A stretch of DNA of 28,476 bases from an uncultured Bacilli bacterium (lineage in GTDB: Bacteria; Bacillota_I; Bacilli_A; RF39; UBA660). The stretch lies in assembly GCA_947626095.1 (NCBI GenBank), contig CANQQV010000018.1:1-28476 (forward strand), read 5' to 3'. A model generated the notes under the pieces. It worked only from the letters and a program-made list of their open reading frames with translations, made no database searches and was not told where the DNA came from. The stretch's first letter is position 1. Every line of letters starts with the position of its first letter. The position numbers were made by a program, and so were the translations under genes. Shown in pieces: positions 12,157-26,440 of the stretch.

Positions 12157-12182
12157 AAAAAAGACAGTTTAAGCTGTCTTTT
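12157..12182 (-). terminator. Terminator overlapping the ABC gene stop
   Basis: AAAAGACAG-TTTAAG-CTGTCTTTT (12159-12182). Confidence 0.75.
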
Positions 12183-14274
12183 CAAATTGACTATTATATA
12201 GTTTCTCATAGAAACCACCTTGAGCCATTAATTCATCATGTGTACCTTGTTCAATGATATTACCTTCATTCATAACTAAGATTAAATCAGCATTCTTAAT
12301 TGTTGATAAACGATGCGCAATAATAAATGAAGTTCTGCCCTCTGTAAGTTTATCCATTGCTTTTTGCACCAATTCTTCTGTACGTGTATCTACATTACTC
12401 GTAGCTTCATCTAAGATTAAGAATGGCGCATCTTCTATCATACCACGAGCAATCGTCAGTAATTGTTTTTGTCCTTGACTAACTGAAGTATCATCAGTAA
12501 TAACTGAATCTAAACCACCTGATAAAGTTTTAATAAAATGATCAATACCTACTGTTCTACAAGCTTTCCAGATATCTTCATCTGTCACATCTTTTTTATT
12601 AAATTTAATATTGTCACGAATTGTTCCATCAAATAACCATGTATCTTGTAATACCATAACAAATAAATCATGAATATTTTCTCTCGTTAAATTCTTCGTT
12701 GAAACGCCATCAATTAAGATATCCCCATCATTAATATCATAGAATTTCATTAAAAGATTAACCATTGTTGTTTTACCGGCTCCAGTAGGTCCTACTATCG
12801 CTATTTTTTGACCTGGTTTAGCTAATGCACTAAAGTTTTTAATTATTGTACGTCCCGCATCATAACCAAATCTAACGTTTTTAAATTCAATTTCCCCTTT
12901 TACTTTTGATTTATCTAAGTGTTGAATCTTTTCATTTTCTAAAGGCATTTCTTTTTCATCTAAGAATTCAAATACTCTTTCAGAAGCTGCTGCTGTAGAT
13001 TGTAATGTTGTCATTGCTTGAGCAATTTGCGATAATGGATTAGTAAATAATCTAACATAAATCATAAATGCGACAATAACCCCAAATGAGATAACATCAT
13101 TCATTGTAAGTAATGCTCCTACTACACAAACTGCTACATAACTTAAATTACCGACAAAGCCCATTATAGGTTGCATAACTCCTGATAAGAATTGACTCTT
13201 ACGATTACAATCATATAATTTATTATTTAATTTTTTAAATTCGGTAACAGCTTCTTTATCCCCATTATAAGCTTTAACGACATTATGACCAGAATATATT
13301 TCTTCAATATAACCATTTAAATTACCTAATTCAACTTGTCTTTGATTAAAGTATTTTTGTGACTTACCTAAGATTAAGAACATTAAAGCAAAACCAATAA
13401 GACTTGCTAAAATAGCCGTTATAGCCATTGTCCAATTAGTCACAAACATCATAATTATTGAACCAACAAACAAAGTAATACTAGCTACTAACATCGCTAA
13501 ACTTTGATTCATATTCATTCCAATCATATCAACATCATTAGTAACACGTGATAAGACATCACCAGCTTCATGTTGATCAAAATACTTTAATGGTAATTTA
13601 TTAATCTTGGTACTAATACTACTTCTTAATTTTTTCGCAAAATTATTTGATATTGTTGCCATTGAATAATGTTGTATGTAACTAAATATTGCACTAATAA
13701 TATAGAAAGAAGCTAAAACAATCGCAATACGATATACTTCATCCATATTCATTTTTGGTTTAACTAAGTCATAAATTGAACTTGGTAATTCATCCATTTT
13801 AGCTAATAATTCTTCACTAGTTGATTCTGGATCAACACTACTCATTAGTTCTAAGAACTTAATTTGATCATCTTTATTAATTGTTACATCATCTACTTTA
13901 ATATCAGCTAATGAGTTTAAAATACCACTACTTATTAAAGCCTTTATATCTGGTGTTGCTTGGGTATTTTGCATTTCACTACTATCAGTAACACTATACT
14001 GAGCTAATACACTTTGAACATTACTACTAATCGCTGTACTTACTTCTTCTAACTTTTCTGTATTAGGTACTAGACCTTCCCCAATTGTATCAGCAAAATC
14101 TGATAATTTATTAGGAGCTATTATCGCTAGAATAGCACTAGCCATTGCTAAGATTAAAGCAACAATTAATAAATAACGCCAATTATTTAAACTTAAGAAT
14201 AATCTTTTCATCGTGCCAAAGAAATCTTTTGATTTCTCATTAACACGATTCATTGGTCCACGTGGTCTAGGCAT
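12169..14274 (-). CDS. Heterodimeric ABC exporter subunit B (TMD-NBD, TM288-like)
   Basis: Six-TM domain; GPTGAGKT; degenerate signature VSQGQ; canonical LDEAT and AHR; 8-nt overlap with the partner gene. Confidence 0.92.
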   Translation of the reverse strand: MPRPRGPMNRVNEKSKDFFGTMKRLFLSLNNWRYLLIVALILAMASAILAIIAPNKLSDFADTIGEGLVPNTEKLEEVSTAISSNVQSVLAQYSVTDSSEMQNTQATPDIKALISSGILNSLADIKVDDVTINKDDQIKFLELMSSVDPESTSEELLAKMDELPSSIYDLVKPKMNMDEVYRIAIVLASFYIISAIFSYIQHYSMATISNNFAKKLRSSISTKINKLPLKYFDQHEAGDVLSRVTNDVDMIGMNMNQSLAMLVASITLFVGSIIMMFVTNWTMAITAILASLIGFALMFLILGKSQKYFNQRQVELGNLNGYIEEIYSGHNVVKAYNGDKEAVTEFKKLNNKLYDCNRKSQFLSGVMQPIMGFVGNLSYVAVCVVGALLTMNDVISFGVIVAFMIYVRLFTNPLSQIAQAMTTLQSTAAASERVFEFLDEKEMPLENEKIQHLDKSKVKGEIEFKNVRFGYDAGRTIIKNFSALAKPGQKIAIVGPTGAGKTTMVNLLMKFYDINDGDILIDGVSTKNLTRENIHDLFVMVLQDTWLFDGTIRDNIKFNKKDVTDEDIWKACRTVGIDHFIKTLSGGLDSVITDDTSVSQGQKQLLTIARGMIEDAPFLILDEATSNVDTRTEELVQKAMDKLTEGRTSFIIAHRLSTIKNADLILVMNEGNIIEQGTHDELMAQGGFYEKLYNSQFEKTA

Positions 14275-16027
14275 TGTCTAACTCCTCCTTTGAAAGTTGT
14301 GATAAAGCTATTTCTTTATACACTTCACAATTTTTTAGTAATTCTTTATGGGTACCAATGCCAACACATTCTCCTTTATCTAAAACGATTATCTTATCAG
14401 CATTCATAATCGTACCTATTCTCTGTGCCACAATTAAACTAGTAGCATCTTTTGTATATTTCTTTAATTCTTTTCTTAAAACTGCATCAGTCTTATAATC
14501 TAAAGCTGAGAATGAATCATCAAATATATATATTTCTGGATCACGGGCTATCGCTCTCGCAATCGCTAGTCTTTGTTTTTGACCACCAGAAACATTAGTA
14601 CCTCCACGCGCAATATGTGATTCATACTTATCTTCCATCTTCATCACAAATTCAGTCCCTTGTGCTACATCAATCGCTTTTTTAATTTTATCTAAAGATG
14701 GTTTTTTACGTCCATTATCACCATATCCAACATTATCAGCTACCGTTCCTGTAAACATAACTGCTCTTTGTGGTACATAACCAATCTTATTATGTAATAC
14801 CTCTTGTTTATATTCTTTAACATTTATACCATCTACTAATACTTCGCCATCAGTAGCATCATAAAATCTTGGTACTAAATTAATTAAGGTTGATTTACCA
14901 CTACCAGTTGATCCGATAAAAGCAATTGTTTCCCCTTTATTAGCTTTAAATGAAATATCTTTAAGTAAGTATTCATCAGCATCTGGATATTTAAATGATA
15001 CATTTCTAAATTCAACTGTACCTTTTTCTTTAGTCTCCTCATCAAACTTACCATCTGTAATATCAATTGGTTCTTCTAATACTTCATTAATACGATTAGC
15101 TGATACTTGAGCTCTAGGTACCATCATAAAGATCATCGCAAGCATTAAAAATGACATAATAACTTGCATTCCATAACTAGAAAATACTACCATATTACTA
15201 AATAAATTAACTTTTTCAACCATTCCCGCTTTAACAATCATTAAAGCTCCAATAAAGTATATACCTAAAGTTAAGAAATGCATAACAAAGTTCATCATTG
15301 GGTTCATAATGGCAAAACATCTTTGATTAAATAATTGGGTATTAGTTAAATCACTATTAACTTCTTCAAATCTCTTAGTTTGGAATTCTTCAGCGTTAAA
15401 CGCTCTTATAACCCTAATACCTGTTAAATTTTCTCTTGTTACCCCATTAACACGATCGATTAATTTTTGCACTTTAGCAAAACGTGGTAAAACAATTATC
15501 ATTAACGCAATAACTGTTGATAATAAAATAACTACTCCAGCTGCTGTTAACATACTCCACTCTATACTCTTATCAATTATCTTCATAACCGCCCATACGG
15601 CCATAATAGGTGCTTTAATCATCATTTGTAAACCCATACTAATTAACATTTCAATCTGCGTAACATCATTAGTTGTTCTTGTAATTAAACTACTAGTTGA
15701 AAACTTCTTAATCTCTGCCATACCAAAGTCTTCAACTTTATTAAATATTTTATTACGTAGTGTTCTTGAAAAACTAGCGGATAGTTTAGAAGCTAAATAA
15801 CCAACACCAATCGCTGATGCTAAACTACCTAAAGCACAAAGTAACATATAACTACCTTGTTCTAATATCTCACTCATTTTACTACCATCAGTTTGAATAA
15901 GTCTTGTTATCGCACTCATATAATCTGGTAGTTTTAATTCAATCCATACTTGGAAAACAATCATAACTAAACAAATAAAAATAATTAAAATATCTTTTTT
16001 ATTAAAATTCTTAAATAACTTTATCAT
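14267..16027 (-). CDS. Heterodimeric ABC exporter subunit A (TMD-NBD, TM287-like)
   Basis: GSTGSGKS; VSGGQKQR; degenerate Walker B FDDSF and switch AQR. Confidence 0.92.
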   Translation of the reverse strand: MIKLFKNFNKKDILIIFICLVMIVFQVWIELKLPDYMSAITRLIQTDGSKMSEILEQGSYMLLCALGSLASAIGVGYLASKLSASFSRTLRNKIFNKVEDFGMAEIKKFSTSSLITRTTNDVTQIEMLISMGLQMMIKAPIMAVWAVMKIIDKSIEWSMLTAAGVVILLSTVIALMIIVLPRFAKVQKLIDRVNGVTRENLTGIRVIRAFNAEEFQTKRFEEVNSDLTNTQLFNQRCFAIMNPMMNFVMHFLTLGIYFIGALMIVKAGMVEKVNLFSNMVVFSSYGMQVIMSFLMLAMIFMMVPRAQVSANRINEVLEEPIDITDGKFDEETKEKGTVEFRNVSFKYPDADEYLLKDISFKANKGETIAFIGSTGSGKSTLINLVPRFYDATDGEVLVDGINVKEYKQEVLHNKIGYVPQRAVMFTGTVADNVGYGDNGRKKPSLDKIKKAIDVAQGTEFVMKMEDKYESHIARGGTNVSGGQKQRLAIARAIARDPEIYIFDDSFSALDYKTDAVLRKELKKYTKDATSLIVAQRIGTIMNADKIIVLDKGECVGIGTHKELLKNCEVYKEIALSQLSKEELDNA

Positions 16028-16028
16028 C

Positions 16029-16469
16029 TTAAATCCTTTCTAAGTTTTTTGTAATCTTATTACAAACATCACTAAATATAATATATTCATCTTGTCTAAT
16101 ATTTTCACCTAATAATTTATTAATCTCTATCATATCATCTTTTAATTTAGTAGCTATTTCAATAGAATAATCAGTTAAAACTATTACTTTACGTCTTGAA
16201 TCAGTACTTGAATCCTCTCTTCTTATCAGTTTATTTTTCTCCATATTATTTAAAATAGTCGATAAGGTTGATTTCTTACAAGCTATCATCTGTTCAATAT
16301 CTTTTTGACATATTTCTTCTTGATGATCATAAATAAACATAATAATTCGTCCCTGTACTGGTGTAACTCCTAAATTTAACTTTTTATAACGAGCTCCTAA
16401 AGCCCTTAATAAATTAAGATTTAATGTTTTTATTTTTAACGTTAATAAATTATCCTGCAATACAATCAC
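16029..16469 (-). CDS. MarR family transcriptional regulator
   Basis: GVTPVQGRII, QKDIEQ..KSTLSTILNNMEKNKLIRR, DSRRKVIVLT wHTH pattern; ends 1 nt upstream of the ABC start. Confidence 0.9.
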   Translation of the reverse strand: MIVLQDNLLTLKIKTLNLNLLRALGARYKKLNLGVTPVQGRIIMFIYDHQEEICQKDIEQMIACKKSTLSTILNNMEKNKLIRREDSSTDSRRKVIVLTDYSIEIATKLKDDMIEINKLLGENIRQDEYIIFSDVCNKITKNLERI

Positions 16470-16473
16470 CTCT

Positions 16474-16495
16474 AATAGTTCTATTGCGAACTATT
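16474..16495. promoter_or_regulatory. Probable MarR operator palindrome
   Basis: AATAGTTC-TATTGC-GAACTATT perfect 8-bp arms, between the -10 box and the marR start. Confidence 0.75.
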
Positions 16496-16497
16496 TA

Positions 16498-16526
16498 ATT
16501 ATAGTACTCTTATATTACATATGCAA
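16498..16526 (-). promoter_or_regulatory. Sigma-A promoter of the marR-ABC operon
   Basis: TTGCAT (16521-16526) - 17 nt - TATAAT (16498-16503). Confidence 0.7.
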
Positions 16527-16529
16527 TAG

Positions 16530-16553
16530 AAAAAGAGTAAATTATTTACTCTT
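16530..16553 (-). terminator. Intrinsic terminator after S66 paralog 2
   Basis: AAGAGTAAA-TTA-TTTACTCTT (16533-16553) plus A-tract. Confidence 0.7.
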
Positions 16554-16563
16554 CACAAAACTT

Positions 16564-17535
16564 TCATTTTAGGTATTCTAAACTACCTTCTTCTTTATTA
16601 CTTATAACTCTTACTTTAAACCCATTTATCATGGTAAATGAAGGCTTTACATGCCCAACGTCAAAATTATATATAACTTTAATATCCGGCATCGCCTTAC
16701 TAATTAATTCTTCATAACTCATATCAACAAAGGTATTTGGAAAACACACTTTACCAATTAAAATCGCTTTCGTCTTTTTAAACCATCCCGCATTTTTAAA
16801 TTGTAATAAAGTATTATAAACTCCTTCACTACTCATATTAAAAATATCAAAATACCATATAATACCTTCATTACCATATTTATCTATAAAATCTTTAGTT
16901 TTATCAAACTTAGTTCCAATTATATCTTTTAGTACTTCGATACAACCACCTATTAAAACACCCCTTTCATCTACATCACCATTTATATTTAACCAAGTAT
17001 TTTCTTTTGTAAGTTCATCACTAAAATGTTCATCTTCCGTATAAGGATATTTATTTTGTTTAACTAAATCACCTTTTAATATTTTAAAATAGTTTAAATA
17101 TGATTCATGTAAAGGTGTTATATTAAAACCTGACATATTACAAGGTGAATAAATCGTAGCTATATCATAATTAGTCGTCATTATATAAAGTAAACTAGTT
17201 GGATCACTACTGCCAGCTAACCACTTAGGATGACTCTTTAAGATATTAAAATCTACTTTATCTAACATATCATATAAAAAATCTCCCCCACTAGCAATAG
17301 CTACCATATCTACTTCATCATCTAAAAATAGACTTTCTAGTTCTCTAGCTCTAGTTAACGCCTCACTACTTACTACACCACTAGTTCTTACATTATTTGT
17401 TTCTTTTATTCTAAACTTATTATTTTTAACATTATTAATACTCACTTCATACTTTTCTATTTTATCTAAAACTCCCGCACTACAAGCCGTAATTCCTATA
17501 ACATCATTATCTTTTAAATACTTAGGAATAATCAT
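16564..17535 (-). CDS. S66 family peptidase (LD-carboxypeptidase/MccF family), paralog 2
   Basis: PKYL..DVIGITACS, SGGD, GSSD (nucleophile Ser), IGGC and DVGH motifs; start at ATG 17535 after GAAGGTGA (track 17595). Confidence 0.88.
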   Translation of the reverse strand: MIIPKYLKDNDVIGITACSAGVLDKIEKYEVSINNVKNNKFRIKETNNVRTSGVVSSEALTRARELESLFLDDEVDMVAIASGGDFLYDMLDKVDFNILKSHPKWLAGSSDPTSLLYIMTTNYDIATIYSPCNMSGFNITPLHESYLNYFKILKGDLVKQNKYPYTEDEHFSDELTKENTWLNINGDVDERGVLIGGCIEVLKDIIGTKFDKTKDFIDKYGNEGIIWYFDIFNMSSEGVYNTLLQFKNAGWFKKTKAILIGKVCFPNTFVDMSYEELISKAMPDIKVIYNFDVGHVKPSFTMINGFKVRVISNKEEGSLEYLK

Positions 17536-17572
17536 TATATCACCTTCATCTTTAACCCAAAAAGTACAATCC

Positions 17573-17914
17573 TTATTGTACTTTATACCTGTCATTTACA
17601 TCATCATTATCAGTATATTCTGAAGCCTTAACATACTTAGGAATAGGTATTCCCTTTCTTGTAAATAGATTTATCCCATAGAAAAGTACAATCACTAAAT
17701 CTGTAAAAAAGATTAATAAAAACATAAAATTAATTCTAAATGATCTAATTAAAAATAACATAATAAAAGCACTAAAGATAAATCCCCCAATACATTTCCC
17801 TTTAGCTGGTTTTTGATAAATTCTTTTATAAGCATTATACTTACTCTTTTCATTAGCTACCGCATAACCTTCCAAAAACTTATCAATTATATTCTTATCT
17901 TTCTTATCCTTCAT
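17573..17914 (-). CDS. Hypothetical two-TM membrane protein
   Basis: Hydrophobic hairpin; ATG 17914 preceded by GGTGGT (track start 17941). Confidence 0.65.
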   Translation of the reverse strand: MKDKKDKNIIDKFLEGYAVANEKSKYNAYKRIYQKPAKGKCIGGFIFSAFIMLFLIRSFRINFMFLLIFFTDLVIVLFYGINLFTRKGIPIPKYVKASEYTDNDDVNDRYKVQ

Positions 17915-21217: not shown

Positions 21218-21243
21218 TAAAAACACCTAGATATTAGGTGTTT
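21218..21243 (-). terminator. Terminator ending the aspS-orf233 operon
   Basis: AAACACCTA-GATAT-TAGGTGTTT (21221-21243) spanning the TAG stop, plus A-tract. Confidence 0.75.
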
Positions 21244-21928
21244 GACATTTCCTTTTATATTGTAAATGAGCATTATAATACATCTCATTATAATAGATAC
21301 GTTCATTATCTGCATCATAAAATTCCGTAAATCTACTATCCGCGAAATACTCTTCAAAACTTTTCTCCATCTTCGAAGCATCAAAAACACGAAGTTTTTC
21401 TGGTACCATATAATGAGCATCAAAAAAACGTAATGCTTCTCTAAGCTCCTCTATCGTTTTATAATCATCATAACTAGGGTGTTTTATATTAGGAATAAAA
21501 TCTGGATTAGGAATTAATTTATAACATCCACATTCATAGTTTAAAAAGTCTTCTTTAGTCATATAACCATCTTTTTGAACGTCTTGATAAGAAAACATTT
21601 CAATCAAAGGTTGAAAAGCTGAAAAGATATCAGCCCCAGGTTCAGGTTTTACTGGTACCCTAATACCAACTCCACCCCAAGTATATCCAAAATTTTCTGG
21701 ATTACTTTTACATAACTCTTCAAATAATTTTTGATTACTTTCATCTAACTTAGAAATAGTTATCCATGAATTATCATTATCATAATTATTGCACATAACC
21801 GTAAAAATATTTTTACTCCACAATAGTTTACACGCTTCCAAATTTTCAGGAATTATAAATTCTTCTGGATTAGCATAAACGAAATTCATATCAACTGCAC
21901 TATATTGGTAAGCGCGTTCACTTAGCAT
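21227..21928 (-). CDS. Hypothetical cytoplasmic protein co-transcribed with aspS
   Basis: 233-aa ORF; ATG 2 nt after the aspS stop; AAAGGGGG RBS within the last codons of aspS. Confidence 0.8.
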   Translation of the reverse strand: MLSERAYQYSAVDMNFVYANPEEFIIPENLEACKLLWSKNIFTVMCNNYDNDNSWITISKLDESNQKLFEELCKSNPENFGYTWGGVGIRVPVKPEPGADIFSAFQPLIEMFSYQDVQKDGYMTKEDFLNYECGCYKLIPNPDFIPNIKHPSYDDYKTIEELREALRFFDAHYMVPEKLRVFDASKMEKSFEEYFADSRFTEFYDADNERIYYNEMYYNAHLQYKRKCQTPNI

Positions 21929-21930
21929 TT

Positions 21931-23673
21931 TTATTTTTCCCCCTTTAAAGACAATCCTAATTCATCTAATTGTTCTTTAATAACATTACTTGGTGCTTCA
22001 CACATTAAATCAGTAGCTGATGCTGTTTTAGGGAATGCTATAACATCACGAATATTTTCTGTACCTGCAAGTAACATTGTAAGACGATCTAACCCTAAAG
22101 CAAAACCACCATGTGGCGGACAACCATATTTTAAAGCATCAACAAAGAAACCAAATTTTTCTTTAATATCTTCATCAGTTAACTCTAACGCTTTAAACAT
22201 AATTTCTTGAACTTTTTCATCATGAATACGAATTGATCCTCCACCAGCTTCATAACCATTTATAACAATGTCATAAGCTTTACTGTAACAATGAGCTTTA
22301 TCAGTTAATAATTTATCAACATCTTCATCTTTAGGTGCTGTAAATGGGTGATGACAAGCCATATAACGTCCTTCCTCTTCACTCCACTCAAAGCTAGGGA
22401 AATCAACAACCCATAATAACTTATAATCATCTTTCTTAATTAAATCTAAATCACGAGCTAACTTACATCTTAAAGCTCCTAATGAAGTTTTAACTACATT
22501 ATAAACTCCACTAATAATTAATACTAAATCATTACTTTCAACTTTTAATTTTTCTTTAACATCATTTACTTCTTTTTCACTTAATACTTTAACAACTGAA
22601 CCAGTTACTTCATCTTGATACTTTAAGTAAGCTAAACCACTAGCTTTATATGTCTTAACATAATCAGTTAGTTTATCTAAGTCTTTTCTTGAATATTTAT
22701 CTGCCGCATTCTTAACAACTATGGCATTAATAACACCATTATCAGCGATAACATTTTTAAAAACTGTAAATTCCGTATTTTTAAAACAATCTGTTATATC
22801 ATTAATTTCCATTCCAAATCTTAAATCTGGTTTATCAGACCCATAATTAGCTATTGCATCATCATATTTCATACGCATTAAAGGTAATTTAATATCAATC
22901 CCTCTTACTTCTTTAAAGATACTAGCTACTAAGTTTTCGCCTAACCACATTACATCGTCTTCATTTACAAATGACATTTCTACATCTATTTGTGTAAATT
23001 CTGGTTGACGATCAGCTCTTAAATCTTCATCTCTAAAACATTTAGCAATTTGAAAATATCTTTCAAAACCAGAAACCATTAATAATTGTTTAAAGATTTG
23101 TGGTGATTGTGGTAAAGCATAGAATTTACCTTTATTAACACGACTTGGTACTAAATAATCTCTAGCTCCTTCAGGAGTAGATTTACAAAGAATTGGTGTT
23201 TCAACTTCTAAGAAATCTAAGTTATTTAAGAACTTTCTTGTTGCAAATGTAATATTATTTCTTAAAACAAAATTATTCTTTAATGATTCTCTTCTTAAGT
23301 CTAGATAACGATATTTTAATCTCGTATCTTCCAAAGCATTCGTATCATCAGAAATAGCAAAAGGAATCTCTTTAGAAGTGTTAATAAGTTCTAAGTTATC
23401 AACCTCTACTTCTATCTCTCCAGTTGCTAAAGCACTATTCTTGCTTTCTCTTTCAACTATTTTACCTGTTACTTTAATAACATATTCACTCTTTAAAGAA
23501 TTAGCTAGTTCATAGCACTTATTTTCTGGCCTTACAACAACTTGCATAATTCCCATTCTATTTCTTAAATCAATAAATATTAAACCACCTAAGTTTCTTA
23601 CTTTAGAAACCCATCCATATAAAGTAACTTCTTCACCAACATTTTTAATATTATAATTTTTGTATTTTTCCAT
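21931..23673 (-). CDS. aspS: Aspartate--tRNA ligase (bacterial type with GAD domain, likely discriminating)
   Basis: GGLIFIDLR OB-fold, RLKYRYLDLRR, TPEGARDYLVPSR, ALPQSPQIFKQLLM, FRDEDLRADRQPEFTQID, YGSDKPDLR, HHPFT, PPHGGFALGLDRL and IRDVIAFPKT motifs. Confidence 0.98.
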   Translation of the reverse strand: MEKYKNYNIKNVGEEVTLYGWVSKVRNLGGLIFIDLRNRMGIMQVVVRPENKCYELANSLKSEYVIKVTGKIVERESKNSALATGEIEVEVDNLELINTSKEIPFAISDDTNALEDTRLKYRYLDLRRESLKNNFVLRNNITFATRKFLNNLDFLEVETPILCKSTPEGARDYLVPSRVNKGKFYALPQSPQIFKQLLMVSGFERYFQIAKCFRDEDLRADRQPEFTQIDVEMSFVNEDDVMWLGENLVASIFKEVRGIDIKLPLMRMKYDDAIANYGSDKPDLRFGMEINDITDCFKNTEFTVFKNVIADNGVINAIVVKNAADKYSRKDLDKLTDYVKTYKASGLAYLKYQDEVTGSVVKVLSEKEVNDVKEKLKVESNDLVLIISGVYNVVKTSLGALRCKLARDLDLIKKDDYKLLWVVDFPSFEWSEEEGRYMACHHPFTAPKDEDVDKLLTDKAHCYSKAYDIVINGYEAGGGSIRIHDEKVQEIMFKALELTDEDIKEKFGFFVDALKYGCPPHGGFALGLDRLTMLLAGTENIRDVIAFPKTASATDLMCEAPSNVIKEQLDELGLSLKGEK

Positions 23674-23691
23674 AACTCTTCACCTTTCTAA

Positions 23692-23911
23692 ATAAAAAAC
23701 AGTTAATCATCCATAAGGGACGAATAACTGTTAAATCCGCGGTACCACCCAATTTATTATGTTAAACATAATCTCTTTTTTGATAACGGAAAATATTTCC
23801 GGACATATAGTCAACTCCTGAGTGTCTTCTTATTTAAAATAATCTTAGTTTCCACCAACCACTAAGTCTCTATAATATTTTTAAATAATACTCTTCTCAA
23901 TCAACATTTAT
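23692..23911 (-). ncRNA. T-box riboswitch leader with Asp (GAC) specifier
   Basis: Minus strand: AGAGA box, GGTGGAAA distal loop, specifier loop AGAA-GAC-ACTC (GAC = 23824-23826), CCGTTATC, T-box AATTGGGTGGTACCGCG (23738-23754), antiterminator CGTCCC, terminator stem 23698-23732 plus U-tract. Confidence 0.93.
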
Positions 23912-23917
23912 AACGCT

Positions 23918-23946
23918 ATTTTAAAACTAAATATCTTTATTGTCAA
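23918..23946 (-). promoter_or_regulatory. Sigma-A promoter of T-box-aspS
   Basis: TTGACA (23941-23946) - 17 nt - TAAAAT (23918-23923). Confidence 0.8.
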
Positions 23947-23950
23947 TTTA

Positions 23951-24982
23951 TTAAATACATGGAGATTCACTTAAATATATCTTTTTATTAGTATAATCTA
24001 CTTTTATCTCTGATCCTAAAGGTATAATTCCTACTGGATCTGAATGACCAATATTAACATTATATAAAACCGGTAAGTCTTCTCGATTAAATTCCTTCAA
24101 AACTTTTTTATAAACTTCTTTATATTCTTCATAATATTGTTCATCTTGTGGTTTACCAACTATAATACCTTTAACTACATCAAAGATTCCTAAAGCTCCT
24201 AAATTTCTTAAATAAAAAGTTACATATTCCGGACTAGGTTTATCTTCACTCGTTTCTAACAATAATATTTTATCTCGCCATTCCTCTTTACTTGGCCATA
24301 CTTCCGTTCCCACAACCATGGGAAAAACATCTAAACAACCACCTAAAACTTCACCGGTTACAACACCTTGTCCTTGTAATACTTCATATCCATGTTCTTC
24401 TGGTCTTGTCTTTTTTTCGATCTTAATATTTTCTTCTTTCCATTCTACGAAGTCATTACACCATACTTCACTTGATTCAATTTCATAGTCCTTACAATCT
24501 TTAAATAAAATATTTTGCACAGCCTTCTTCGTATAATCAAACATTTTAACATATTCGCCAAATTCACACATTATTGAAGGCCCATAAAAAGATACTAATC
24601 CGGCTTTATACATCATTAAATGATTTACTGTTGTATCAGAATATCCCATAAATATTTTCGGATTATTTTTTATTACTTCATAATCAATATATGGTAATAA
24701 TCTAACGGTATCATCTCCGCCAATAGCACAGAAAATACCTTTTATTGATTCATCCTTAAAAGCATCCATTAAATCTTTAGCTCTAGCTTCTGGATGTTCA
24801 TATACAAACTCACTACCCTTTAAAGCATTCGGCATTGCGACAACTTCTAAACCAAATTCTTTTTCTAATCTTTCCTTAGCAATATAATATTTATGAATAA
24901 AATTATCATCACCAAGCATTCCACTAGACAAACTAACAATCGCAATTTTATCTCCTTTTTGTAATCTTTTAGGTTTAATCAT
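23951..24982 (-). CDS. S66 family peptidase, MccF-like (microcin C7 immunity/LD-carboxypeptidase family)
   Basis: IGGDD, NPKIFMGYSDTT (Ser115), FYGP, LLETSE (Glu243), GH (His313); loop W174-CNDFVE-W181. Confidence 0.92.
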   Translation of the reverse strand: MIKPKRLQKGDKIAIVSLSSGMLGDDNFIHKYYIAKERLEKEFGLEVVAMPNALKGSEFVYEHPEARAKDLMDAFKDESIKGIFCAIGGDDTVRLLPYIDYEVIKNNPKIFMGYSDTTVNHLMMYKAGLVSFYGPSIMCEFGEYVKMFDYTKKAVQNILFKDCKDYEIESSEVWCNDFVEWKEENIKIEKKTRPEEHGYEVLQGQGVVTGEVLGGCLDVFPMVVGTEVWPSKEEWRDKILLLETSEDKPSPEYVTFYLRNLGALGIFDVVKGIIVGKPQDEQYYEEYKEVYKKVLKEFNREDLPVLYNVNIGHSDPVGIIPLGSEIKVDYTNKKIYLSESPCI

Positions 24983-25012
24983 CTATTACACCATCCTTAT
25001 CTTAAAAATAAT

Positions 25013-26440
25013 CTAAAAATCAATTATTCTACTATCAACTATATCAGAATAAACAGATACTAAATATTTCATATCTTCTGCATTAAAGGCCGTACATCCA
25101 TGTGTTGATGGACTTCCATTTCCTCCACCAACATGAAATGGATTACTTCCTCTTCCGCCACCACCATTATTCTTATAGATAACGTCAACTCCTAAACCTT
25201 CATTAACTCTTCTACCAACCGTATAACTATTAATATGAACTTTAGTCCCTGCATTATCACCATTATGTAGAAAATCACCTGTATTAACAGGAAATACTTT
25301 ATATAAACGCCAATTACCTTTAGAACCAGTAAACATATATTCCGTCTGTGAACCATGACTAGTCCAAAAAAGATATTTAGTTTTACTATCAAAGCCATTA
25401 GAATTTACAAAATCTTCAACATATTCTTTACCATACATACTTGAAATAGCATAAGAAACAGGTGTTACACTATTATTATTTATTTGAATATAATCATTAC
25501 CAACTTTAATTGTATCACCATATGGATAACCTTTAATACTACTTTTAGCTACTCCATTATATACACCCTGTGTTCCAGCATTTAAAGTTACACTATTACC
25601 GGTTATTAAACTATTACCCGTAACTTTAGATAATACTTTAACATTAGTATAAATAGTTTGAACTACTGTAACATTAACTGATGCTTTCTTAGAAGGATCA
25701 TCTTTAGAAGTAATAATAATATTCGTAATTCCCCCAAAATGTGGTTTAATAACTCCATCCTTAGTCACTGTAACAATTCCTTTATTACTACTTTCAAAAT
25801 TATAATCATTAGGATTTAAAGCATTACCTCTATTATCAACCAAAGATATACTAGCTTTATTAAATGAAGTGTAATTGGCCAAAGCTAGACGTTGTTTAGT
25901 AACCTTAAACTCATTATTAACAATTAATTCTGGTTCTGCAACTTGTCCGAAAGTAGTATCACCACCTTCTACTTCTTCACTATTATTCTCCTCACGATTA
26001 CCCTGAATAACCTCATTAACACTATCTTCTTTTTCTTTTCTCTTTTCTAAAGCTTCTTGCATTTTCTGACGTTCTTTTTCTTTTTCAGCTTCCAACTTCT
26101 GTTTTTGTAATTCCGTCAATTCTTTTATTCGCTCTAATGATATATTATTTGCACATACTTTCAAAGGATTTTCACTATTTGTTATTATTGAAGTAAAAAC
26201 ATAATTAATAATTACTGGAATCAGAAAAACAATAATCGCCGCTACCGTTCTCTTACCAATCATTGATATTGAACCACTTACATTCTCTTTTTTCGGATTC
26301 ATAACTATTTTAAATAAATCTACTATAACTAAAATAATTAAAATAATAGGTACCAAGGTAAAAACAATTTGCAACGCATACTTCATAATTAACAAAACAC
26401 TTAAAATATGCGGTTCCTCACATATTGTTATTCCATCCAT
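25013..26440 (-). CDS. Pilin-like two-TM / coiled-coil / Ig-like (Big_2) / L,D-transpeptidase-like fusion protein
   Basis: Cys-flanked two-TM N-terminus; FESSNKGIVTVTKDGVI..GITNIIITS (Big_2-like); SKTKYLFWT..QTEYMFTGSKGNWRLYKVFPVNTG and FH...STHGC (YkuD-like). Confidence 0.72.
   Translation of the reverse strand: MDGITICEEPHILSVLLIMKYALQIVFTLVPIILIILVIVDLFKIVMNPKKENVSGSISMIGKRTVAAIIVFLIPVIINYVFTSIITNSENPLKVCANNISLERIKELTELQKQKLEAEKEKERQKMQEALEKRKEKEDSVNEVIQGNREENNSEEVEGGDTTFGQVAEPELIVNNEFKVTKQRLALANYTSFNKASISLVDNRGNALNPNDYNFESSNKGIVTVTKDGVIKPHFGGITNIIITSKDDPSKKASVNVTVVQTIYTNVKVLSKVTGNSLITGNSVTLNAGTQGVYNGVAKSSIKGYPYGDTIKVGNDYIQINNNSVTPVSYAISSMYGKEYVEDFVNSNGFDSKTKYLFWTSHGSQTEYMFTGSKGNWRLYKVFPVNTGDFLHNGDNAGTKVHINSYTVGRRVNEGLGVDVIYKNNGGGGRGSNPFHVGGGNGSPSTHGCTAFNAEDMKYLVSVYSDIVDSRIIDF

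Follow-up and report, generated by a model that had tools for sequence, protein, structure and literature searches.

A predicted MccF-clade S66 peptidase gene, probably an incidental insertion, beside a T-box-regulated aspS gene in an uncultured Bacilli bacterium

It has been proposed that stand-alone homologues of the peptidase MccF form a reservoir of resistance against aminoacyl-adenylate (Trojan-horse) antibiotics. In Escherichia coli, MccF is the self-immunity peptidase of microcin C7 (PDB 3tla-3tlz), is encoded within the mcc biosynthetic cluster and, according to a passage in PMC3817062, effectively cleaves aspartyl and glutamyl adenylates only. The Bacillus anthracis enzyme, BaMccF (PDB 3gjz; 5k99 with microcin C, McC), is the product of a stand-alone chromosomal gene in a non-producer, and LdcA-type LD-carboxypeptidases (PDB 5z01, 1zrs, 6uuk) share with these enzymes the S66 two-domain fold and a Ser-His-Glu triad. 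A further S66/MccF-family protein, BA3275, is represented by four entries (PDB 5f1y, 5f5x, 5f9m, 5jyb), one of which has adenosine monophosphate (AMP) bound according to its title (5f5x). On plasmid pAgK84, the agrocin 84 cluster carries an MccF-like gene, agnC5, about 4 kb from agnB2, which encodes an agrocin-resistant leucyl-tRNA synthetase (LeuRS). Here we describe an S66 peptidase gene located immediately upstream of the promoter, T-box leader and coding sequence of an aspartyl-tRNA synthetase (AspRS) gene, aspS, the whole set lying on the minus strand of a 28,476-nucleotide stretch of DNA (the window) that covers positions 1 to 28,476 of contig CANQQV010000018.1 of assembly GCA_947626095.1, from an uncultured Bacilli bacterium (GTDB lineage Bacteria; Bacillota_I; Bacilli_A; RF39; UBA660; genome G000 in our comparisons). 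A sequence-only reading of this DNA had proposed that the two genes form a resistance locus in which destruction of an aspartyl-adenylate antibiotic and up-regulation of its target are combined. We instead consider it probable (about 70%) that the gene encodes a stand-alone aminoacyl-nucleotide hydrolase and came to lie beside aspS incidentally.

The predicted 343-aa protein (23951..24982, minus strand) matched both Pfam models of its family, Peptidase_S66 (PF02016; 120.1 bits, cut-off 25) and Peptidase_S66C (PF17676; 96.4 bits, cut-off 23.7). Its Ser115, Glu243 and His313 aligned with S116, E243 and H313 of BA3275, which are the three residues replaced by Ala in PDB 5jyb (titled 'S116A, E243A, H313A'). 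Ser115, whose codon occupies 24638..24640 (minus strand), stands in a GYSDTT motif common to this protein and E. coli MccF (EcMccF), where it aligns with S118, and the triad was kept almost throughout a set of 81 orthologues (S115 in 80/81, E243 in 79/81 and H313 in 81/81). All four deposited BA3275 chain sequences (5f1y, 5f9m, 5f5x and 5jyb) have Ala where Ser115 aligns, including the entry titled 'native', and the deposited proteins appear to be S116A variants. A search against PDB sequences placed BA3275 first (E 1.2e-112), followed by an S. pneumoniae MccF-like protein (1.2e-69), BaMccF (6.4e-42), BA_5613 (1.8e-36) and EcMccF (1e-34), with weaker matches to LdcA-type proteins (7.7e-12 and 3e-4). 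An AlphaFold2 model built from a 27-sequence alignment, with a predicted local distance difference test score (pLDDT) of 94.8, gave the same ranking, superposing on BA3275 with a structural Z of 53.8 and a root-mean-square deviation of 1.2 A over 342 aligned residues at 50% identity, and on the B. anthracis and E. coli MccFs with Z 43-44 over 327-330 residues (43.7-43.8 for BaMccF, and 43.2-43.6 over 328-330 residues for EcMccF). MccF-clade matches spanned Z 41-54 overall, compared with Z 31.5-33.5 over 273-289 residues for the E. coli and P. aeruginosa LdcA-type entries, and the LdcA equivalog model NF008424 scored the protein at only 50.3 bits against a cut-off of 378. The E-values, Z scores and equivalog result together support membership of the MccF clade rather than the LdcA type.

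The protein also carries the loop EVW-CNDFVE-W181-KEE, of which the segment W174-CNDFVE-W181 is encoded at 24440..24463 (minus strand). As a reference for this region we used MccF from an E. coli plasmid with a typical mcc cluster, comprising a ThiF-type adenylyltransferase, an MFS transporter, a methyltransferase, a GNAT protein and a convergent S66 gene. At 29% identity by BLASTP, E-V-W174-CNDFVE-W181 fell without gaps on E-K-W-SDESIN-W of this MccF, and MAFFT agreed. The annotated coding sequence of the reference is five residues shorter than the literature numbering (its Ser113 is S118), and its own W181 is for this reason W186, which, as the legend to Fig. 7 of PMC8323819 states, stacks on the adenine. 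PDB titles name the variants W186F (3tlz) and, for B. anthracis MccF, W180A (3sr3); the latter enzyme, 31-33% identical to our protein, has the same loop, with W-SDEFIN in its printed sequence. Among the 81 orthologues, W181 was retained in 80 and W174 in 78. At the level of sequence, this supports W181 as the counterpart of the adenine-stacking W186. Furthermore, approximately 40-50 more residues of the protein aligned with the MccFs than with LdcA, and sequence alignments put the Trp loop in this extra segment; LdcA is not known to carry such a loop. On the strength of the sequence and structure ranking, the triad, the Trp loop and the AMP-bound BA3275 entry, the protein is best described as a predicted intact MccF-clade member carrying a nucleotide-binding loop. 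In these respects the sequence-only reading was well founded, having named an MccF-type rather than LdcA-type enzyme, an intact Ser115/Glu243/His313 triad, and a W181 at the position of the adenine-stacking Trp, and the E. coli motif that it gave, W-SDESIN-W, was correct.

The residues around the substrate are a different matter. EcMccF and BaMccF share the motifs GGNLNT and IEDS-x-K, both of which are lacking in our protein; together with BA3275 it has GGC-(L/I)-(D/E)-V and ETSED-(K/H)-P, with two extra residues after the catalytic Glu. Asn220 is the second Asn of GGNLNT and Lys247 the Lys of IEDS-x-K, and both were mutated along with S118 in PDB 3tly, as its title states; in a 2012 PNAS study of MccF these two residues reportedly govern the preference for acidic side chains. 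Our protein, which reads GGCLD218V and ETSEDKP, has Asp218 at the Asn220 position and a two-residue insert near the Lys247 position, and does not show the Asp/Glu-specific MccF pocket (Asn220 with Lys247). Of the 81 orthologues, 78 have Asp and 2 have Glu at residue 218. By inference, an acidic residue here would argue against an acidic substrate side chain, and with a conserved Asp at the Asn220 position, aspartyl-adenylate specificity cannot be assumed. On these motifs the protein falls in a BA3275-like subfamily, apart from both MccFs for which there are substrate complexes. BA3275 is its nearest solved relative, with the same triad positions, both loop Trp residues and the GGC-x-(D/E)-V and ETSED motifs. 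A literature search by spellings of the BA3275 name returned no paper on its substrate, and BA3275 therefore informs fold and nucleotide binding rather than function.

To place the adjacency in an evolutionary context, we compared 23 loci around window-type aspS in the genus, each with about 1.5 kb of upstream sequence. Window-type AspRS is found throughout the genus (54-96% identity). Of the 24 other genomes of the genus, two contained a match to the S66 protein at E<=1e-20 (G005 at 90% and G016 at 49% identity), and an S66 gene lay upstream of aspS in 2 of the 23 loci, those of G000 and its nearest relative, G005. The T-box, by comparison, was present at all 20 loci tested (of the 22 from relatives), and in an alignment of 20 leaders, made without locus L023, the TTGAC of the -35 box, most of the -10 hexamer and the GAC-A of the specifier region were invariant. 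In the close relative G010, whose AspRS is 93% identical, the stop codon of a gene for a 475-aa membrane or exported protein of no known family (up475; 25013..26440 in the window, minus strand) is followed by 13 nt and then TTGACA, with no S66 gene between. In G000 the up475 stop is followed by 30 nt that include a ribosome-binding site, the S66 open reading frame (ORF), 4 nt and the same TTGACA. Since G010 has the same flanking gene at the same promoter without it, the S66 gene represents an indel of approximately 1.06 kb, and comparison of these sequences indicates that the promoter, the Asp T-box and aspS are ancestral and predate the insertion. G005 retains the right-hand junction (1 nt from S66 stop to TTGACA) with a left flank different from that of G000, and up475 is not linked to S66 in relatives.

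Beyond the genus the pairing was equally restricted. From 326 relatives we kept 80 orthologue loci (62-90% identity), the titles of which name many Firmicutes families and a few other phyla; 68 of them have at least 1 kb of downstream sequence. Only one of the 80 had aspS directly downstream, and this locus (L043) belongs to the same sister genome. At a further locus (L086) aspS lies 2.9 kb upstream of the S66 orthologue, following an unannotated 443-aa ORF that we take by its position to be hisS; with three ORFs separating aspS from S66, this proximity was judged unrelated. The sequence-only reading had itself held that its proposal should fall if the adjacency proved not to be conserved in relatives, and this is what the survey found, both in the genus (2/23) and among the orthologue loci (1/80, the same sister).

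The immediate neighbours of the orthologues, surveyed at 78 of the 80 loci (150 ORFs), form a heterogeneous set of accessory genes. GNAT acetyltransferases adjoin S66 at 17/78 loci, of which about six have one synteny in common and do not represent independent cases; other neighbours include aminoglycoside-type phosphotransferases (APH), NUDIX, HD, Ham1 and isochorismatase proteins and small P-loop kinases, as well as relaxase, recombinase, transposase and restriction or defence genes. Aminoacyl-tRNA synthetase (aaRS) genes were immediate neighbours at 2/78 loci and, with an estimated 20 or so such genes per genome, this is roughly the level of chance. A BLASTP comparison of E. coli MccE with 283 neighbour ORFs gave no match at E<=1e-3, and the frequency of GNAT neighbours is therefore no evidence of MccE/MccF pairing. 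At one locus, the sole case in the 78, an S51-family peptidase is encoded immediately 3' of the S66 orthologue (L070:7052-7822); the McC immunity enzyme MccG likewise belongs to S51. The S66 protein shares about 80% identity with a protein that its source assigns to Clostridium butyricum, compared with AspRS identities that fall to 54-57% within the genus, and for this reason we infer that the gene was acquired horizontally. Orthologues at 63-76% identity were also found on metagenome-assembled contigs titled Muribaculaceae, Bacteroides or Gastranaerophilaceae (L057, L062, L083, L088 and L112), which reflect either transfer across phyla or mis-binned contigs.

The junction itself is compact. 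The S66 stop codon (TAA, 23953..23951) is followed by 4 nt (TAAA) and then by the -35 box of the aspS promoter (TTGACA, 23946..23941), a sigma-70-type site with a 17-nt spacer and a TAAAAT ending at 23918 (23918..23946, minus strand). With 11/12 matches, this is the best promoter-like site of the region, in a promoter scan that overall stood at shuffle level (34 sites against 35.2 expected). The T-box leader (23713..23913, minus strand) matched RF00230 over its full length (model positions 1-219) at 125 bits against a gathering threshold of 93, and its specifier loop reads GAA-GAC-A, giving the Asp codon GAC at 23826..23824 followed by A. A putative terminator hairpin with a U-run was recognized by eye at 23694..23733 (minus strand), at the 3' end of the Rfam match and directly 5' of the aspS ribosome-binding site. 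From the S66 stop to the T-box leader, the terminator scan found no terminator-like site; it also missed this hairpin, which has few G-C pairs. Downstream, aspS (21931..23673, minus strand) encodes a 580-aa AspRS of bacterial type with the Pfam domains tRNA-synt_2, GAD and OB and a score of 840.5 bits against the equivalog NF001750 (cut-off 443). Upstream of S66, a promoter-like match at 25038..25010 (9/12) was rejected, as it lies within the conserved coding sequence of up475 and the scan was at shuffle level. The G+C contents of S66 (0.298), aspS (0.291) and up475 (0.297) are nearly equal, and the insertion is not marked by composition. DNA contigs from public runs, which may include the source sample, bridge the junction over 23708-24148 with no differences (X3 record 13) and over 23886-24341 with seven (X1 record 6), and the single RNA run to contain part of the window, X7, yielded short pieces of aspS (90-99% alike) and none across the S66/promoter junction.

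The synthetase and the wider genome provide further context. The genome contains 14 T-box matches, of which 8 exceed the cut-off, and finding a T-box on an aaRS gene is therefore nothing unusual in this organism. A second AspRS, likewise of bacterial type and about 42% identical to the window copy, is encoded in an asnS-aspS2-gatC-gatA operon (contig C12:2245-6874; locus L002), and both copies occur in 21/27 genus genomes; they possibly divide labour as discriminating and non-discriminating enzymes. Contamination of the assembly as the source of the second copy was rejected, given that both are genus-wide. Because both copies are genus-wide and the window copy is T-box-regulated and vertically inherited, the window aspS is not a recently acquired resistant duplicate, and the window AspRS does not fall in the resistant-duplicate class of the agnB2 or mupirocin type. 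A whole-genome search with E. coli MccB returned nothing beyond a partial ThiF-like match (E 3.3e-9, query residues 136-221), from which we conclude that the genome is not an mcc producer, and in the window no MccB relative, and hence no mccA/mccB linkage of the kind that identifies mcc-cluster immunity, was found. The sequence-only reading had accurately described the 4-nt spacing to the -35 box with no terminator between, the Asp specificity of the T-box (its GAC being invariant in the 20 aligned leaders) and the non-producer status of the genome. Its joining of detoxification and target up-regulation into one functional unit was not supported, in view of the rarity of the adjacency and the ancestral state of the aspS unit.

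Under the explanation we favour, the 343-aa protein would be an active Ser-His-Glu peptidase of the BA3275-like subfamily of the MccF clade, which most likely binds a nucleotide through its Trp174/Trp181 loop and most likely cuts the acyl-amide bond in compounds that join an aminoacyl or peptidyl group to a nucleotide, a substrate class put forward here as a prediction. It would act as a stand-alone detoxifying or house-cleaning enzyme. Its gene would be an accessory ORF moving horizontally among gut Firmicutes, and the insertion, bringing neither a terminator nor a convincing promoter of its own, would have occurred in an ancestor shared by G000 and its nearest relative, between the upstream gene and the ancestral aspS promoter. 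The adjacency to aspS would then most likely be incidental and entail no functional coupling. Several considerations weigh against this explanation. Plasmid pAgK84 provides a precedent for an MccF-like gene co-located with the gene of the targeted aaRS. The logic of a two-tier response is sound, in that inhibition of AspRS would raise uncharged tRNA-Asp and open the T-box. The S66-aspS pair has stayed together through one rearrangement, as G000 and G005 share the right-hand junction while their left flanks differ, although a spacer of 1-4 nt leaves little room for a break. Finally, two sister genomes are too few to tell chance from selection.

One rival to this explanation is a selected two-tier defence, in which a non-producer exposed to microcin C-like aspartyl-adenylates would destroy the inhibitor with the S66 enzyme and raise its target through the T-box. 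The MccF-type fold and Trp loop, the Asp specifier, the absence of a terminator between S66 and the leader, and the junction kept in both genomes that carry the gene at aspS are all consistent with such a scheme, as is the cleavage of aspartyl and glutamyl adenylates by EcMccF reported in a part of PMC3817062. The pAgK84 arrangement resembles it too, with an MccF-like gene (29% identical product) near the gene of an aaRS targeted by an aminoacyl-adenylate-mimic antibiotic, but there the setting is a producer plasmid with biosynthetic genes and an extra, resistant aaRS copy, whereas here the aaRS is vertically inherited, T-box-regulated and genus-wide, and biosynthetic genes are absent; EcMccF likewise sits in an mcc biosynthetic cluster, of which this genome has none. 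We regard a two-tier defence as improbable: the adjacency is confined to so few loci, the T-box-aspS unit is older than the insertion, the genome has a second AspRS, and the pocket differs (GGC-L-D218 against GGN-L-N220, with the two-residue insert after the catalytic Glu), its acidic D218 arguing against an acidic substrate side chain. Moreover, S66 and aspS have no regulation in common: the aspS promoter comes after the S66 gene, and transcripts reading through would still encounter the T-box terminator. The stronger claim, that S66 has been retained precisely at the 5' boundary of the Asp-T-box-aspS promoter because the two genes cooperate against an aspartyl-nucleotide inhibitor made by gut competitors, appears to us quite improbable. 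If true, it would constitute a minimal module by which a non-producer both removes the inhibitor and over-produces its target, and a bolder corollary would be that the BA3275-like subfamily, with its acidic pocket residue, recognises an undescribed class of aminoacyl-nucleotide natural products.

A role as an LD-carboxypeptidase acting on cell-wall tetrapeptides, in murein recycling or trimming, is suggested by the Pfam name of the S66 domain ('LD-carboxypeptidase'), by the capacity of the genome to make peptidoglycan (7 Mur-ligase and 5 transpeptidase matches) and by a weak YkuD-like motif in the product of the upstream gene. We consider this role unlikely, as the protein falls far short of the LdcA equivalog NF008424 (50.3 against 378 bits), is much closer in sequence and structure to the MccFs, with its Trp loop in the extra aligned segment, and has a nearest solved relative crystallised with AMP; the upstream gene is unlinked to S66 in relatives, and the S66 gene itself was not found in most of the genus. 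The 4-nt, terminator-free interval between S66 stop and -35 box, together with the short 30-nt interval and ribosome-binding site 5' of S66, also raises the prospect of a purely transcriptional effect, in which S66 transcripts run into the T-box leader and either add to aspS expression or disturb its promoter. This seems highly improbable as the whole explanation, given that the aspS promoter is intact and near-consensus and that the T-box terminator would still gate read-through.

Other features of the window and its relatives were noted in the course of this work. A second S66 paralogue (16564..17595, minus strand), 27% identical to the first, has lost the second loop Trp through a loop deletion; it lies directly 5' of a MarR regulator gene (16029..16469) and two ABC exporter genes (14267..16027 and 12169..14274), and the region 12169-17595 (minus strand) could represent a separate detoxification and export unit. 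The up475 protein matched no Pfam family and gave a C-terminal YkuD-like (L,D-transpeptidase) match around S-T-H-G-C that was below the cut-off (E 0.12); its N-terminal 150-200 residues were found again in several paralogues of relatives. Just 3' of aspS, a 233-aa ORF of no family (21227-21928, minus strand) recurs at the same place behind aspS in several relatives, with 42-66% identity. Five relatives (loci L018, L020, L021, L022 and L023, of genomes G023, G018, G004, G013 and G006, respectively) have a further class II aaRS-like ORF directly after aspS, 32-36% identical to the N-terminal part of AspRS and 38-42% to a C-terminal piece, which may share the Asp T-box; this ORF does not occur at the corresponding place in G000.

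Together these analyses indicate that a suggestive neighbour, even the gene of an antibiotic's target, can be an accident of insertion, and that adjacency to aspS is unfit as evidence of function for this peptidase. The BA3275-like subfamily, with its Trp loop and an acidic residue at the Asn220 position, presents a reasonable target for a substrate-specificity screen, of modest practical value. For the MccF family, this case adds a well-conserved, horizontally moving MccF-like subfamily in gut Firmicutes.

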